A stretch of DNA of 64,000 nt. It comes from a virus. Lineage: Duplodnaviria; Caudoviricetes. Shown piece by piece: positions 42,729-51,061 of the stretch. Numbering within the stretch: position 1 is the stretch's first letter; the number at the start of each line of letters is the position of its first letter. Made by a program: the position numbers and the translations under genes. The notes below the pieces were generated by a model, which did no database searches, had not been told where the DNA came from, and worked only from the letters and a program-made list of their open reading frames with translations. Location of the stretch: positions 154,067 through 218,066 of the IMG/VR virus record IMGVR_UViG_3300021387_000796; one strand, given 5' to 3'.

Positions 42729-42771
42729 AAATTTCTACCTTCTTTTCCAATACAATTGTATAAGAAAATAG

Positions 42772-43599
42772 TTATAAATCAAACAGACTTTCTTCCTCGA
42801 TTTTTAATTCTTCTATTCCACATTCTCGCAACTTATCAAAAATCATATATTGTTTAAGCCTAGCCATAGCAATCCCTTTAACTTCATTCTTCCAATCAGT
42901 TTCTTTTAGAATTTTAAGAATTTCTTGTTTCTGCGGATGCTTATCATCAATCTTGATTTTATATTCACCACTATATTTTTCATCATCAGATAAAATCTTT
43001 CCTACACTTCCATTACCCCAATAACACATTCTTAAATCATAATCCGTTATTGAATCATAATCTTTTCTATCTTGCCTATAAAACGTAACACCTTCAAAAT
43101 GCTCTTTCTTAAATTTATGTTCACCACCACTAGGTCTTTTATATAAATTAAAGCAACAATGCAAATCTACACCACTGTAAGTTTTTATTCCCAAATCCTC
43201 TGAATAAATTAAATCAAAACGATAAAATGAAGTTACATTATTTAATTGAGAAATTGGCAGAATGAACCCTACATAATCAGCGATATCACAAGACTTATTA
43301 AAGAAATCCCTAGCAAGTTTAAGTCTATCTCCATAAGGTGGATTACCAATAACTAAAGTCCCCTTTTCATATTTAAGAGAATAGGTCAAATAATCATCTT
43401 GAATTGCATTTTCATACTGTGGTTTTACATCAATCATCAAGTTTGGTTTAATCTTCCAATTACAGAAAGCACCGCTTCCAACTGATGGTTCTATAATTCT
43501 TTTTACTGTTGAGAAATCCACATACTTTTCCACAATTTCCCAACAGTGATTTGCTACTTCTATAGGAGTATAATATTTGTCTAATTCGATTTTTGCCAT
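42772..43599 (-). CDS. DNA amino-methyltransferase (N6-adenine type)
   Basis: DKYYTP, IIEPSVGSGAF, GNPPY, FILP. Confidence 0.85.
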   Translation of the reverse strand: MAKIELDKYYTPIEVANHCWEIVEKYVDFSTVKRIIEPSVGSGAFCNWKIKPNLMIDVKPQYENAIQDDYLTYSLKYEKGTLVIGNPPYGDRLKLARDFFNKSCDIADYVGFILPISQLNNVTSFYRFDLIYSEDLGIKTYSGVDLHCCFNLYKRPSGGEHKFKKEHFEGVTFYRQDRKDYDSITDYDLRMCYWGNGSVGKILSDDEKYSGEYKIKIDDKHPQKQEILKILKETDWKNEVKGIAMARLKQYMIFDKLRECGIEELKIEEESLFDL

Positions 43600-43645
43600 G
43601 ATTAATTCCTTTATAAATTCAATATATCTAAAATTATTACTATAA

Positions 43646-45232
43646 TCAAGATAAATTTGTGTTTTTAAAATATTCCATGAGTTCTTGCTCAACTGTTTTA
43701 AGATTATTAAGTCTTAAAAGATTTATACCCTTTTGTTTACAATAATTATTTTTAATTTGGTCGTGTTTTTGAACATATTTCAAATTTTCCAACTTTCTAT
43801 CTTCGGTTATAGTTTTAGAACCAAAAGTAGTTGGACTGAAATGTTGTTTTCCGTCATATTCAATACATAAATTATATAAAGGAATATAAAAATCAAACGG
43901 AAGACTTCGTTTATCTTTACAATCAGCAAATCGTTTTTCTTCCTCGAATTCAATATTATTTTTGATTAAAAATAATCTTATTTTCTTTGCACCTTGAGAT
44001 GAATTACATTTAGGACACCCTCCACCACTTAAATGGTCATTTGGTGTTTGCCAAAACGCACCATGTTTTGGACAAATTATTTTAATTTTTGTTTTAGCAT
44101 CTATATACTCTGCTTCAGAATAATCATAAGTTCCTTCTCCTTGTTTTTCATTTGCTTTTTCTATAAATTCTTTAATTGTTAATTTTAAAGTTCCTGCACA
44201 TTTAGGACAACCTTTACCTCGAAGATGGTCGTTTGGTCTTTGCCAAAATTCATAAGGATTATCGTGATTATTACATATTATGCAAACTTTTGTACGATTA
44301 TTAACATAATTTGTTTTAGAATAATCATATTTCCCTTCTCCTTGTATATAATTTGCTTTATTTATAAATTCTTCTAATGTCATTTTTTGTTGCTCAGATT
44401 GTAATTCTCTTGCACATTTTGGACATCCATGACCTTTAACATGATTGCGTGGATTTTGCCAAAATTCAAAAGGTTCATCATGATTATGACAAATTATAAG
44501 AACTTTAGTTTTAGTATTTTTATAATTTACTTTTGAATAATCATATCTTCCTACACCATGAATTTGATTTGATTGTTCTATAAATTCTTCTGTTGTCAAT
44601 TTTAATTTTCCACCGCATTTTGGACAACCTTGACCTCTTAAATGCGATTCTGGTGTTTGAACAAATTCATAAGGTTTATCATGATTTAAACAAATTATAA
44701 TAACTTTAGTACGAGCATTTTTATAGTCAACTTTAGAATAATCATATTTATTTCCATGTATAATTTTCGATTGTTGTATAAATTCTTCTAATGATAATTT
44801 AGGAGGAATTTTCCCTTTTTCAACTGCACAAAAAGGACAGTTATGACCGCTTAAATGTTTAGTGGGTGCTTGCCAAAAATAATAATTATGCTTTTTGCAT
44901 TTTATATAAACTTTAGTTTCACAATTTATATATTCTACTTGTGAATAATCATATTTATCACCATGAACATGTAAGGCTTTCCAAATAAAAGTTTTGGTTT
45001 TCTTATCTTTGTACCAATATTTCAAATTAATAATTGTCAAAAATTCCTTTTCTCTGCACATCATTCGATAATTTTCAATTTTTCTAAGAAAATCATCTGC
45101 GAATCTAAAATTTCCAATGATTTCTTTCTTTTCAGAAACATCATTAATTCCTACGCATTCTTCACAATTACAATTTTCTTGATTTTCAACTTTTGTCTTA
45201 TCATAAGACATCACACGATTTAATAAATTCAT
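43646..45232 (-). CDS. Zn-ribbon repeat protein with C-terminal Vsr-like PD-(D/E)xK endonuclease
   Basis: Five (H/Q)G..YDYS..KV.I.C..H...H..G.GCPKC repeats; LPFDFY..CIEYDGKQH..KNNYC. Confidence 0.85.
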   Translation of the reverse strand: MNLLNRVMSYDKTKVENQENCNCEECVGINDVSEKKEIIGNFRFADDFLRKIENYRMMCREKEFLTIINLKYWYKDKKTKTFIWKALHVHGDKYDYSQVEYINCETKVYIKCKKHNYYFWQAPTKHLSGHNCPFCAVEKGKIPPKLSLEEFIQQSKIIHGNKYDYSKVDYKNARTKVIIICLNHDKPYEFVQTPESHLRGQGCPKCGGKLKLTTEEFIEQSNQIHGVGRYDYSKVNYKNTKTKVLIICHNHDEPFEFWQNPRNHVKGHGCPKCARELQSEQQKMTLEEFINKANYIQGEGKYDYSKTNYVNNRTKVCIICNNHDNPYEFWQRPNDHLRGKGCPKCAGTLKLTIKEFIEKANEKQGEGTYDYSEAEYIDAKTKIKIICPKHGAFWQTPNDHLSGGGCPKCNSSQGAKKIRLFLIKNNIEFEEEKRFADCKDKRSLPFDFYIPLYNLCIEYDGKQHFSPTTFGSKTITEDRKLENLKYVQKHDQIKNNYCKQKGINLLRLNNLKTVEQELMEYFKNTNLS

Positions 45233-45315
45233 CACAATCCTCTCAAATATTTTAAGTTTTGGTTATTGGACGTAACCTCGAATTAAATAGTTAATTCTTA
45301 AATAAGATAGTTAAA

Positions 45316-45403
45316 ATAAAAAGAGAGGTGTATTTGTGGTCAAACGGATTGTGTATTTGACCAACTCAAGCGTCCAACTTGAATTACACCTCTCAAATAA
45401 TTA
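45316..45403 (-). ncRNA. Putative antisense small RNA (three-way junction, two targeting loops); ends approximate
   Basis: Outer stem GAGAGGTGTA/TACACCTCTC plus U-run; two inner hairpins whose loops match the leader of 43646..45232; TAACTATTT at 45411-45419. Confidence 0.6.
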
Positions 45404-45416
45404 TAAATTAAAATAG

Positions 45417-45650
45417 TTAATTGTTACAAGCATATTCAACCACTGAATCATCTCCGTAGTCTACGCTATGGAACTCGGATTGACTTCGATAATCTTCGTT
45501 AAGATATGTCTGAATAGATTTCAACTTTCCCAAAAAATCTTGTTCCATACTACCACCACAAGGACAAACTATTACTTTGGGTGCTGAACCCATAGGATAT
45601 TCAAGTTCTTTTTTAGTTCCACATTTTTTACACAAATATTTATATGTCAT
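45417..45650 (-). CDS. FmdB-family zinc ribbon protein
   Basis: MTYKYLCKKCG..CPCGG. Confidence 0.7.
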   Translation of the reverse strand: MTYKYLCKKCGTKKELEYPMGSAPKVIVCPCGGSMEQDFLGKLKSIQTYLNEDYRSQSEFHSVDYGDDSVVEYACNN

Positions 45651-45997
45651 ACTTTCAAATCCTCCAACTCTTTAATTCTTATACTTTTGTCTTTCTGCAA
45701 AGTAGGAATTAATTCAAAACATTTAATTGCTGAATCCCTCAAGAATGTCTTTTCAGAATTAACCGCAATATAGTAAATCATATTGAATTCGTTTTTAACT
45801 TTAATTACGCAACCGTCCAATTCATTTTTCTTGTTATAGAAATTAATTGCCTTGCAAACACCCTTAAATGAGCGAACTTTCTTGTCATTATAAATTACAG
45901 TCTTTACATCAGAGTAGGAATTGCAGTTTTCACATTCAAACTTGATTTTATTCCCATTGGGAAAAATAAATTCATTGTTCGTTACAGATAAAGACAA
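45647..45997 (-). CDS. Hypothetical protein
   Basis: TTG start with AAGGAG RBS; overlaps the next gene by ATGA. Confidence 0.65.
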   Translation of the reverse strand: MSLSVTNNEFIFPNGNKIKFECENCNSYSDVKTVIYNDKKVRSFKGVCKAINFYNKKNELDGCVIKVKNEFNMIYYIAVNSEKTFLRDSAIKCFELIPTLQKDKSIRIKELEDLKV

Positions 45998-46011
45998 TTT
46001 TAATTCTCCTT

Positions 46012-47217
46012 TTAATTTACAATCTTTTTCACTTTCTTCACAACCGTAGGTGTTGTTTCAACATTAGGTTGAACAGAACTTGTGTTTTCAACCAATCTTT
46101 TGGTGTTTTGGTTGTTTCCGCAATAATATTCATAAATCTTACTAATAAAAACATTAGGATTAAAATATGATGAACATAACTGCTGAGTTTCATTAAACAC
46201 TTTATACAAAGCCAAAAGATTACCACTCGCCTTCATCTTAGCAAATGATTTTTCCTTCCACTGAACTTCAAAAGGTTCACCAATCATATCACGTAAAGCA
46301 TTGTTGCTCAAGATTGTGTACCAATAAGGAATCATATCACCAAGATTATTCAAGTTATCATTGATATATTTCAATGCTGATTTATCTTTATTCAACAATG
46401 AAATTACAATGTCAGCCTCCTTCTCTTCATCGGTGTAATTCAAAAGTTTAATCAAATCGTCTTTTGATGTACATTCTGAATCAAGTGCTACACTCAAATC
46501 ATTCAACGCTTGTCTAATATTATTCTTTGAGTTCTGTGCGATGTATGGAATAAGTTCCAAAATCGTGTCACCCATTTCACCATTAGGGTCAATTTTTGTA
46601 GTAAATAACTGAAATAAATAATCGCTGATTTCATCTGTTGTAATCGGATTCAACTTGTACAAAGAAATTCTTGAACGAAGGGCATTTTTTTCCCTAGTAG
46701 CATTATCCTTTCCGTAAGAGTTTGAAAACTTGGATTCATCAGTAGAAGTCAGAATTACATAAGTGTTTGGACGATTCATCTCCAAGATTGTAAGCAACTG
46801 TTTCATAGCGGTAGCATTAATCATCTGTGCTTCTTCAATAATGATTACTGTATTTTCATCAATCATTGAATCATAACACATTGATTCATTTAGTTCACGC
46901 ATTTTATCAACTGTCAAATCACCACCATTATAGCAAGTTACCGAACGGTTAAATCTTTGTTCTACAATATCCTTTACTGCCGAACATTCGAGGTCAGGTT
47001 CTACCATTTTATTTTCATCAATAATCTTCTTTTCAGAGTTTAGTGTCATGGCAATCAACCTAGCCAATGTAGATTTTCCTATTCCACTGCCCCCTACTAT
47101 ACAAATCGCATTACCCAATGTACCTTTTGTGATAGCATTTTGAATAGAATGTACTACATTATGATTTCCTACAAATTCCTTAAATGTCTTTGGACGATAC
47201 TGAATTCCAAACTGCAT
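46012..47217 (-). CDS. dnaX: Clamp loader AAA+ ATPase (DNA Pol III gamma/tau-like)
   Basis: YRPKTFKEFVG, GGSGIGKSTLARL, IIEEAQ, ALRSR, NIRQALN. Confidence 0.85.
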   Translation of the reverse strand: MQFGIQYRPKTFKEFVGNHNVVHSIQNAITKGTLGNAICIVGGSGIGKSTLARLIAMTLNSEKKIIDENKMVEPDLECSAVKDIVEQRFNRSVTCYNGGDLTVDKMRELNESMCYDSMIDENTVIIIEEAQMINATAMKQLLTILEMNRPNTYVILTSTDESKFSNSYGKDNATREKNALRSRISLYKLNPITTDEISDYLFQLFTTKIDPNGEMGDTILELIPYIAQNSKNNIRQALNDLSVALDSECTSKDDLIKLLNYTDEEKEADIVISLLNKDKSALKYINDNLNNLGDMIPYWYTILSNNALRDMIGEPFEVQWKEKSFAKMKASGNLLALYKVFNETQQLCSSYFNPNVFISKIYEYYCGNNQNTKRLVENTSSVQPNVETTPTVVKKVKKIVN

Positions 47218-49444: not shown

Positions 49445-51061
49445 TTATTTCTCATCTTCATGTTTCTTTCTAAATGATTTCATATAATCCTTTCCATATT
49501 TATCTTTCACATATTTCAAATAAGGTTTTACATCGTTTTCCATTAAAATTAAAACATCATTTTCTTTCATACATTCGTATTTTGCTTGACTTCTACCATC
49601 ATCTTTGAAAACATTCTTTACTAAAATATGGTCGCCTTTTATTTCTACCAATCTATCATAAACCTTAAAATCAACTTTATAATAATGAGTTTTGTCATTC
49701 CAAATATAAGGAATAGAAATAGTATGATATTCAAAGGGAATACTGTTATCTTTAAGATAAATGTAATAAGCAAGTTCCCAAGATGAATCAAATTCTTCAT
49801 TGTCGTAATAATAACAAGTTCTGTGATTTCTTCTAGTTTTAGGATTTTGTGAAGGGTGATAATAACATGTATGTTCAAAATAAGTTTGTTTCATCTTTTC
49901 TTGACTTTCTTTGGTTTGAGTGTTGTGCAAACCACCATGATTTTTCCTATTAGTTTCCATTGATTTTTTAGTTAATTTTTCACGATAATCATTTCCATAC
50001 AATTCTCTACATGTTTCATCCGCTTTATTCCAAAATTTCTTACCATAATCATCACCATATAATTTTCTTTTAGTTTTATCTCCTTTATCTGCAAATTTAC
50101 TTACATAATCTTCACCGTATTTTTCAATTTTAGTTTTCTTAGATTTATCATCAAATTTTAATTCACTGTTTTCATTTTTAGTGGCATTGTATTCAGCAAG
50201 ACGTTCTTTGTATGTAGCAACTCTTTTAGCAAGCAAATTTTTATCATGTGAATTGTGGTCAACTCCATATTTATTTAACATTCCTTGCTTCAATCGTTCT
50301 CTATCTTTAAGCGGATTATCAAAACCAATAGAATCCATTGTAGTAATTTTCTTTTTCTCTTTAACCCAATCAAGTTTAGAACAATTATCTACTCCGTGTT
50401 TTTCAATCATTCCATTTTGCATATTTAATAATGTATTTTCTTTCTCTTCTTCAGTATAATTTTTCCATCTTTCTTTACCTATATTACGCATGTGATTAGC
50501 ATAACCACCTTCGTCTTTATAATGTTCTTCTTTATTTTTATTTTGTTTATCTATACATTCGAGTGTATGGGAATTTTTAACCGCTTTATCTTTAACATCT
50601 TTTCTCAGAAAAACATTTTTAACCCCATACATTTTTACACAAGTCTTTTCATAAAAATATGTTTTCGAATTAGGATGTTCCTCGATAAATTTTTGTATCT
50701 GTTTTAATTCATCTTCAGTATATCTAGTAGATTGATAATATGTTACACCTTTTAATTGTAAATCTTTAATTATATTTTCAACAGAACCATTAGCAATCTT
50801 GCATATTTTATGAATATCATTTATTGAATATAAACTTTCAAAATATTTTTTAAATACAACACATTCTTTAATTTTATTTACATCTTTTTCATCATATAAC
50901 TTAACCTTATCTGATTTACTAATTAAATTTAATTTGTCAATTAATGTTTCTGTAACACTTCTGCTTATATCACATAAATTCATTATTTCGAAAATTCTAA
51001 ATAACTTTTCTTGATTTTCTTCTTTTAATTCAATACTATTCTTCATACACATAATGTACAC
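49445..51061 (-). CDS. Free-standing PD-(D/E)xK endonuclease-like protein with KYG repeats
   Basis: KMYGV/KHGV/KYGV repeats; FDSSWE..YKVDF..VEIKG; paralogue of 38161..39363. Confidence 0.75.
   Translation of the reverse strand: MYIMCMKNSIELKEENQEKLFRIFEIMNLCDISRSVTETLIDKLNLISKSDKVKLYDEKDVNKIKECVVFKKYFESLYSINDIHKICKIANGSVENIIKDLQLKGVTYYQSTRYTEDELKQIQKFIEEHPNSKTYFYEKTCVKMYGVKNVFLRKDVKDKAVKNSHTLECIDKQNKNKEEHYKDEGGYANHMRNIGKERWKNYTEEEKENTLLNMQNGMIEKHGVDNCSKLDWVKEKKKITTMDSIGFDNPLKDRERLKQGMLNKYGVDHNSHDKNLLAKRVATYKERLAEYNATKNENSELKFDDKSKKTKIEKYGEDYVSKFADKGDKTKRKLYGDDYGKKFWNKADETCRELYGNDYREKLTKKSMETNRKNHGGLHNTQTKESQEKMKQTYFEHTCYYHPSQNPKTRRNHRTCYYYDNEEFDSSWELAYYIYLKDNSIPFEYHTISIPYIWNDKTHYYKVDFKVYDRLVEIKGDHILVKNVFKDDGRSQAKYECMKENDVLILMENDVKPYLKYVKDKYGKDYMKSFRKKHEDEK

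Follow-up and report, generated by a model that had tools for sequence, protein, structure and literature searches.

In the OxyS-fhlA and S. aureus RNAIII-rot/coa pairs, two short loop contacts, one of them over the Shine-Dalgarno sequence (SD), give specific and rapid translational repression, and in ColE1 RNA I/RNA II fully complementary 7-nt loops form stable kissing helices. Among phages, the C4 RNA of P1 and P7 and the related CI RNA of P4 lie just upstream of their target on the same strand and act through two short segments, one of which covers the ribosome-binding site (RBS) of the first gene; P1 C4 is made from the operon that C4 itself represses. P1/P7 heteroimmunity rests on matched changes in the C4 RNA and its target (Citron & Schuster 1990, as related in PMC8198154), and PMC4872101 gives general background on loop-loop small-RNA complexes. 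The homing-endonuclease genes of T4 (I-TevI, I-TevII, I-TevIII and segB) and mobE of Aeh1 are controlled by a structure that occludes the RBS, with a promoter between the inhibitory sequence and the RBS, so that short transcripts escape (PMC2988022). Here, we describe a predicted small RNA on the minus strand of a 64,000-nt stretch of phage DNA (hereafter the window), the last 64 kb of the 218,066-bp IMG/VR virus record IMGVR_UViG_3300021387_000796 (CheckV 92% complete; 29% G+C). It sits in a 181-nt intergenic gap ahead of the gene of a 528-aa zinc-finger nuclease, and its two loops are complementary to a hairpin and to the RBS in the leader of that gene.

The fold of this RNA, the conservation of the fold and the co-variation of both contacts are shown below. 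As one of the two co-varying contacts lies on the RBS, we propose, with a probability of about 0.6, that a non-coding RNA of ~80 nt represses translation of the nuclease mRNA through two contacts, in trans and, on read-through transcripts, also in cis. The parts of the locus are as follows.

45400-45429, minus strand: sigma70-like putative promoter of the small RNA, TTGTAA (45429-45424), 18-nt spacer, TATAAT (45405-45400); 10/12 consensus matches
45413-45420, minus strand: upstream TTAACTAT, in the promoter spacer along with the stop codon of a 77-aa gene
45313-45394, minus strand: predicted three-way-junction RNA, ~80 nt, made of a 10-bp outer stem, hairpin 1, hairpin 2 and then a U-run
45394-45385 with 45332-45323, minus strand: outer stem, GAGAGGTGTA with TACACCTCTC, 10 bp
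45377-45371, minus strand: loop 1 of hairpin 1, TCAAG-[TTGGACG]-CTTGA; the loop is the specificity "barcode", complementary to the leader hairpin loop
45355-45345, minus strand: loop 2 of hairpin 2, TGGTCAAA-[TACACAATCCG]-TTTGACCA
45346-45353, minus strand: anti-SD/spacer segment CACAATCC inside loop 2, complement of GGATTGTG
45322-45313, minus strand: U-run TTTTTATTTT directly 3' of the outer stem, resembling the 3' end of an intrinsic terminator
45307-45314 and 45287-45294, minus strand: tandem TTAACTAT motifs between RNA and target, presumed promoters of the nuclease mRNA
45261-45277, minus strand: leader hairpin GGTTA-[CGTCCAA]-TAACC (loop 45272-45266), kissing partner of loop 1
45240-45233, minus strand: loop-2 target GGATTGTG, ending at the base before the ATG at 45232
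45230-45244, minus strand: SD GAGAGG, spacer and ATG of the nuclease gene, GAGAGGATTGTGATG
43646-45232, minus strand: free-standing homing-endonuclease gene, 528 aa, with the family-specific N-terminus MNLLNRVMSYDK..., five DUF4379/DUF723 treble-clef zinc-finger repeats and a C-terminal nuclease domain

An initial annotation, made from the letters of the window alone, had sketched a two-loop antisense RNA here, and its stems, loops and motifs were all found on the minus strand where it had placed them. RNAfold returned the proposed three-way junction exactly, as both the minimum free energy and the centroid structure, with a folding energy of -31 kcal/mol against -13.6 +/- 2.8 kcal/mol for shuffled sequences (z -6.18; 0/200 shuffles as stable), and in the fold of a 211-nt context the junction and the leader hairpin remained separate domains. 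A small open reading frame (ORF) within the RNA was considered and rejected, as there is only a GTG-TAA right after an SD-like GAGAGG, and the RNA is therefore not coding. The 11-mer TATTTGAGAGG occurs exactly twice in the window, both times on the minus strand, in the 5' strand of the outer stem (45389-45399) and in the SD region of the nuclease gene (45239-45249). The outer stem of most family members reads AGAGGUG/CACCUCU(UU), an SD-like strand with a strand that resembles the 3' end of 16S rRNA; such a stem may perhaps be merely the easiest G+C-rich one to form in a 29% G+C genome.

The architecture is present five times in the same genome, four times ahead of homing-endonuclease genes of two unrelated families and once as an orphan. 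BLAST of the genome with the region gave a second full copy and several partial ones, and searches with nuclease alignments gave 9 IMG/VR loci and 59 metagenome-contig loci. A covariance model built from nine RNA copies matched ~70-160 nt upstream of the start codon in 17 metagenome loci and in further copies in the genomes of relatives, and in the phage's own genome it hit the expected four copies only. Model R1 scored 58.7 bits on the RNA strand versus 21.9 on the opposite strand, and the G-U pairs are compatible with the strand of the nuclease gene only. Over 19 homologues, 90.8% of the cells are paired, 11/20 pairs have changed on both sides and covariation is seen in all helices; 0/500 shuffles were as high, and slid controls dropped to 36-52% paired. 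An Infernal search for Rfam C4 families had been suggested by the initial annotation, and C4 (RF01695) gave no match in window positions 44500-46200 (E <= 10) or in six homologous loci (E <= 1); the same cmscan runs against Rfam returned chance snoRNA matches only, with no match to the int-alpA motif (RF02996). A degenerate pattern scan of IMG/VR returned at least 79 unrelated loci and one already known, and is no gauge of the spread of the family. Distant nuclease homologues without the MNLLNRMMSYDK N-terminus carry no such RNA module upstream. The second DUF7487 nuclease-like gene of the window (49445-51061, minus strand, 538 aa) has a 78-nt upstream gap with no three-way-junction module, so not every nuclease gene of the phage is under such control. 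Judged by these alignments and searches, the element is a new, strongly covarying RNA family that belongs to no Rfam family.

Covariation of loop and target among homologous nuclease loci was a check proposed by the initial annotation and the decisive one, and its outcome was strongly positive, with 15 distinct loop-1 barcodes (14, and a 15th in locus L219). The copies of the phage's own genome (A to E) and the further loci (L handles) are listed with their loops.

Copy A, this window, 45313-45394, minus strand: loop 1 TTGGACG, leader loop CGTCCAA
Copy B, ~54.0 kb of the own genome, after a PIF1/Dda-like helicase gene: loop 1 TTGGTG, leader loop CACCAA
Copy C, ~14.0 kb of the own genome, after a primase gene: loop 1 TTTTCGC, leader loop GCGAAAA
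Copy D, ~46.4 kb of the own genome: orphan
Copy E, ~40.1 kb of the own genome, before the gene of a 693-aa nuclease: loop 1 CTACCAA, leader loop TTGGTAG
L009: loop 1 TCGTCAC, leader loop GTGACGA
L010: loop 1 TTGCTAG, leader loop CTAGCAA
L012 and L054: loop 1 TCGCAAT, leader loop ATTGCGA
L015: loop 1 TTAGTAC, leader loop GTACTAA
L035: loop 1 TTGGTAG, leader loop CTACCAA
L042: loop 1 ATGCCA, leader loop TGGCAT
L045: loop 1 TCGCAAG, leader loop CTTGCGA
L051: loop 1 TTGCAGT, leader loop ACTGCAA
L055: loop 1 TTGTCGT, leader loop ACGACAA
L057: loop 1 TTGCTAC, leader loop GTAGCAA
L219: loop 1 AGACCAA, leader loop TTGGTCT

Each barcode is perfectly matched over 6-7 nt by the loop of the hairpin in its own leader. 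Cognate pairs have a longest complement of 6.9 nt on average, the 182 non-cognate pairs one of 3.5 nt, and 0/100,000 permutations matched the observed total complementarity between loop 1 and leader. The stems of the leader hairpin vary between copies while the hairpin itself is kept, and the five copies of the one genome are mutually orthogonal (cross-match of at most 5 nt). Although each change in loop 1 needs a second change ~100 nt away, loop 1 is still the most variable segment of the RNA, with a mean column entropy of 1.15 bits against 0.13-0.27 bits for the outer stem in the best-sampled subfamily. When the 86-nt leader was shuffled 200,000 times, the loop-1 target arose with a frequency of 0.00096 and the loop-2 target with 0.00045, and in no shuffle did the two occur together. 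A YUNR U-turn motif in loop 1 was also considered; judged by eye, it is not general across copies and was set aside. The two copies linked to DUF7487 nucleases, in the own genome (G000:C1 40141-40260) and in L035 (G001:C1:25181-25254), have swapped barcodes, so that each RNA would also kiss the RNA of the other phage.

The second contact lies on the RBS itself. The segment CACAATCC of loop 2 has an unpaired probability of 0.93, and its duplex with the target has an energy of -10 kcal/mol. In every copy except L012, where a bulge breaks the anti-SD match, the loop-2 target ends 0-10 nt before the ATG. Loop 2 follows the local changes in SD and spacer, as the loop/target pairs CACAATCC/GGATTGTG, TTCGACCTC/GAGGTCGAA, CAATCTCC/GGAGATTG, TTCTCC/GGAGAA and ATTTTAATCTC/GAGATTAAAAT illustrate, and in some copies it holds the 16S-like anti-SD ACCUCCUU between gene-specific letters. 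By simple accessibility estimates most contact sites are unpaired, with a net -4 to -13 kcal/mol per contact. Copy C (G000:C1 ~14.15 kb; L006:1560-1590) has lost the SD and most of the loop-2 target; because its orthologues L013, L014 and L221 still carry ...ATTATAGGAGATTAAAATTATG, the loss looks like a deletion between two ATTAAAATTAT repeats. The 442-aa nuclease ORF of copy C is intact, and its translation may be poor.

The sigma70-like sequence ends 5 nt before the outer stem, whose first bases coincide with the predicted RNA start at about G45394/A45393. Across the family, 8/16 members have a TTGnnn-17-TAnnnT promoter sequence whose end is 5-12 nt away from the outer stem, versus 0.3 expected from shuffles, and most of the remaining copies have a -10-like or TAACTAT-like motif ahead of that stem. 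A U-run of 6-10 nt follows the strong closing stem in most copies, and we read the two signals as the putative promoter and terminator of the small RNA. Between RNA and target, a TAACTAT motif is found in every copy, and behind copies B, C and D it has the same tandem form as here. Genome-wide there are 95 copies of TAACTAT, mostly 15-60 nt upstream of an SD and ATG; 45 sites lie 19-79 nt upstream of the SD and ATG of ORFs of at least 100 aa, and the genes behind the motif include a baseplate wedge gene and a ribonucleotide-reductase-like gene. As it has no fixed -35 partner, TAACTAT is probably the promoter of a phage-specific transcription mode. The longer form TAACTAT(T/C/A)T recurs genome-wide upstream of genes (in the window, for example, at 944, 12285, 34469, 45287, 45307, 45413, 49435 and 58145), and some copies of the motif stand just behind a good TTGACA-17-TATAAT.

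The regulated gene was also characterized. Its likely start is the ATG at 45232 and not the GTG at 45235 given by the ORF finder, because the paralogues all begin with MN(L/S/V) at the equivalent ATG. The 528-aa protein matches the PHROG homing-endonuclease families phrog_559, phrog_681 and phrog_9084 (E 1e-105 to 1e-26) and belongs to a large family, with 2710 relatives and matches in 981 phage records. The nucleases behind copies A, B and C are paralogues of 52-60% identity that share the N-terminus MN(L/S)(L/M)(N/T)R(M/V)MSYDK; the 693-aa nuclease behind copy E belongs to the different, unrelated family DUF7487 / phrog_3339, as does that of L035 (DUF7487). The initial annotation had called the product a Zn-ribbon/Vsr-like endonuclease. 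The protein does contain treble-clef zinc-finger repeats; as to the Vsr part of the name, JGI calls some relatives very-short-patch-repair endonuclease, and the C-terminal domain gives only sub-threshold Pfam matches (DUF2726, DUF5889, PvuRts1I-like_N). A sequence search of the PDB with the nuclease returned no match, and a single-sequence AlphaFold model of the nuclease domain was unusable (pLDDT, the predicted local distance difference test, 38). The RNA had also been offered as a possible "RNA antitoxin". In type I toxin-antitoxin systems, an unstable antisense RNA binds the mRNA of a small toxic peptide, in most cases a membrane peptide, and there is an addiction phenotype. This idea gained no specific support here, the regulated gene encoding a DNA endonuclease of the homing-endonuclease family and not a small toxic peptide.

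Upstream of the small RNA lies the gene of the 77-aa zinc-ribbon ORF, itself preceded by a clamp-loader gene. Downstream, a 306-aa ORF (42772-43692, minus strand) shares 47 nt with the 3' end of the nuclease gene; it matches phrog_5172, a family of unknown function, and phrog_799 (DNA methyltransferase, E 7e-13) and gives a faint Pfam N6_Mtase match, and the C-type nuclease of L221 is likewise followed by an N6_N4 methyltransferase. Nuclease and methylase together resemble a restriction-modification-like pair. ARAGORN found no tRNA and no tmRNA over the window. Gut metagenomes of animals (cattle, sheep, goat and pig according to the records) contain near-identical DNA, and the source is an uncultured jumbo phage of the animal gut; when the region was compared with 50,697 phage records by megablast and blastn, no meaningful match emerged, and no cultured phage is similar at the DNA level.

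The RNA had further been said to travel with the nuclease gene, and this proved true of the leader but not strictly of the ORF. In two metagenome contigs, L054 and L055, the nuclease ORFs show 100% identity starting at the ATG, while the upstream genes, loop 1, loop 2, leader hairpin and SD/spacer all differ and each version is matched within itself. The breakpoint is exactly at the start codon, which suggests that the ORF has recently moved from one locus to another and that recombination took place within its conserved first codons. Locus L052 has an A-type RNA and leader (98% identical) before a nuclease that shares just 55% identity with A's in the C-terminal domain. Similarity of RNA and nuclease is weakly correlated (Spearman 0.23 for the C-terminal domain, 0.06 for the N-terminus), which fits a shuffling of nuclease bodies behind regulatory modules better than strict co-inheritance of RNA and nuclease. 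Taken together, these loci suggest that one nuclease body can replace another behind a co-adapted regulatory module; the conserved first codons are probably where the recombination takes place. There is also an allele that has the RNA and lacks the nuclease gene. Contigs of two bovine-gut RNA libraries join 45307 directly to 42767 (the joined part is window 42738-42767) and lack the following segment of ~2.5 kb.

42768-45306, minus strand: segment absent from the nuclease-less allele, holding the second TAACTAT promoter, the leader, the nuclease gene and the 306-aa methyltransferase-like ORF, with TAACTAT direct repeats at its bounds

The small RNA lies outside this segment and is kept in the nuclease-less allele with loop 1 unchanged. 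The retained RNA shows three transitions in the 3' strand of hairpin 2, where pairing is kept via G-U, and one change in loop 2, C45347 to T (RNA strand). The orphans D and L029/L030 likewise have an intact junction, and they have no leader hairpin.

In the mechanism that we favor, the RNA would start at its sigma70-like promoter, fold into the three-way junction and end at the outer stem and U-run. Loop 1 would then form a fast and specific 7-bp loop-loop kiss with the 7-nt loop of the hairpin near the 5' end of the mRNA, a contact that would supply specificity, after which loop 2 would pair with 8 nt that run from the 3' half of the SD through the entire spacer as far as the AUG, blocking the binding of the 30S subunit. 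As the nuclease mRNA would start at the TAACTAT promoter(s) between RNA and leader and would not include the repressor, its silencing would have to occur in trans; possession of a predicted sigma70-like promoter and terminator of its own also suggests that the RNA probably acts in trans. Transcripts that read through the terminator would carry both repressor and target and would be silenced in cis, and the two modes are not exclusive. The purpose would probably be to keep a self-interested nuclease low or late.

Several points weigh against this proposal, and some of them speak for a lock of the T4 type that works in cis only. Here, the junction would be the 5' part of long transcripts, coming from the upstream replication genes or from the RNA's own sigma70-like promoter via a leaky terminator, and its loops would fold back on the leader hairpin and SD; transcripts from the internal TAACTAT promoter would lack the lock and be translated, and a free small RNA would be irrelevant. 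This is the main rival to our proposal, possible though less likely. The promoter-like motif that stands between junction and target in every copy is what a cis lock predicts, a promoter between inhibitory element and RBS being the hallmark of T4-type control (PMC2988022), and the E/L035 subtype has no U-run after a weak 6-bp outer stem, so that its transcript would continue into the leader of the nuclease gene and the action would be in cis. One RNA-library contig spans the terminator in the nuclease-less allele, which is a weak point in the same direction: the RNA-labelled libraries are present as assembled contigs whose ends and strand are unreadable, 2/4 runs are probably DNA, and only small shares of the runs are present in these contigs; uncovered parts prove nothing. 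The strong closing stem and the 6-10-nt U-run of most copies would, however, remove most read-through, and a dedicated, well-spaced sigma70-like promoter before the junction would be unneeded for silencing transcripts from upstream. Loop 1, moreover, evolves faster than the stems and is orthogonal within the genome, and a purely intramolecular contact needs neither. A further point counts against our proposal in general. For loop 1 of the orphans (D, L029/L030 and the nuclease-less allele), no matching leader loop is present in the sequences collected, as the search of the genome and all fetched loci returned nothing but the opposite strand of the RNA itself. It follows that the RNA can be maintained where no target is known.

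The pairing could also be real without blocking translation, acting instead on the stability or processing of the mRNA (by RNase III cleavage or protection of the 5' end) or activating translation by remodelling the leader. In an mRNA that starts at TAACTAT, the leader hairpin would indeed be right at the 5' terminus, which is known to influence mRNA decay, and sequence alone does not give the sign of the effect; yet in every copy loop 2 lies directly over SD and spacer, most leaders have no structure around the SD for the pairing to open, and in OxyS-fhlA, RNAIII-rot and C4-icd a contact on the SD is established to block, which makes this version very unlikely. Least credible to us is that the element is a module-boundary cassette acting at the level of DNA (promoter, stem-loop terminator, promoter) behind which nucleases lodge, with loop matches that have no regulatory meaning. 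Like the PeSLs (promoter-early stem-loops) of T4-like phages, such a unit would insulate transcription units and offer a recombination point at which genes are shuffled. The composite promoter-terminator-promoter layout, the TAACTAT-bounded indel that leaves the element in place, the orphan copies and the identical nuclease ORF behind two different modules all suit such a cassette, and the PeSLs have been described as terminator/promoter motifs that mediate indels (PMC4122927). It would leave unexplained, however, 15 independent and perfectly compensated loop/leader pairs with their matched anti-SD loops, as well as the conservation of a three-way junction when a plain hairpin would suffice as terminator. 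A boundary role of the DNA may exist in addition to, not instead of, repression by the RNA.

The initial annotation had likened the element to a C4/CI-type silencer, and this comparison is supported by the upstream, same-strand position of the RNA, the two short contacts with one over the RBS, and the matched variation. As in P1/P7, specificity differs between relatives by matched changes in RNA and target, here in 15 barcodes. The differences are considerable: this RNA matches Rfam C4 neither in sequence nor in structure, its target is a homing-endonuclease gene and not an antirepressor operon, its first contact is a kiss of two hairpin loops, it has a predicted terminator of its own whereas C4 is cut from the operon transcript by RNase P, and several orthogonal copies share one genome. 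OxyS, RNAIII and the ColE1 RNAs are host or plasmid regulators, either unlinked to their targets or true cis-antisense, and none of them forms a family of several barcoded copies linked to mobile nuclease genes. With T4-type control the locus shares a phage homing-endonuclease gene and an RBS covered by predicted RNA pairing. The TAACTAT motif between inhibitory part and RBS in every copy may correspond to the T4 promoter that yields translatable short transcripts. The T4 structure is, in contrast, a single local hairpin that includes the RBS and is strictly cis, while here a separate three-way junction lies 70-120 nt upstream, with its own predicted promoter and terminator, two contacts of intermolecular type and hypervariable matched loops.

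Two other phage elements bear some likeness. The PeSL cassettes of T4-like phages place terminator/promoter motifs at the boundaries of variable modules and are tied to insertions and deletions (PMC4122927); the composite layout and the indel bounded by TAACTAT recall them by description, and loops complementary to a downstream leader and SD are not reported for PeSLs. In cyanophage S-PM2, the long antisense transcript CfrI spans the psbA/endonuclease junction (Millard et al. 2010, as summarized in PMC12197685). It is likewise a phage non-coding RNA physically linked to a homing-endonuclease gene, and it differs in being a true antisense RNA where the one described here is a same-strand, two-loop RNA of trans type. 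In full-text literature searches, no account of a homing endonuclease regulated by such an RNA was found, CfrI being the only link between an RNA and an endonuclease found. By analogy, the mechanism would be closest to P1/P7 C4 and to the two-site kissing complexes (OxyS-fhlA, RNAIII-rot), and the biological context closest to T4-type control.

Homing endonucleases are now viewed as weapons in the competition between phages and as drivers of phage genome change, and to our knowledge restraint of their expression is known only for a few T4-type hairpins and for autorepressors. The family described here would add a compact and apparently modular RNA controller with ~15 natural orthogonal "addresses" and an unusually clean natural covariation. 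The family is new to Rfam, lets two-contact repression (kissing and anti-SD) be tested directly in phages of anaerobic gut bacteria, and offers synthetic biology a ready-made set of orthogonal translational repressors. It is also conceivable, though in our estimate unlikely, that the RNA serves immunity and competition between phages, with a genome that carries it silencing in trans the same-barcode homing endonuclease of a co-infecting relative. If this were true, orphans or the nuclease-less allele would be protected from cutting and conversion. A nuclease cassette would evade the silencing through changes in both loops, and this pressure would be what makes loop 1 so variable and so orthogonal, in a P1/P7-style heteroimmunity applied to selfish nucleases. 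An RNA acting in this way between co-infecting genomes would be the first RNA-based defence against homing.

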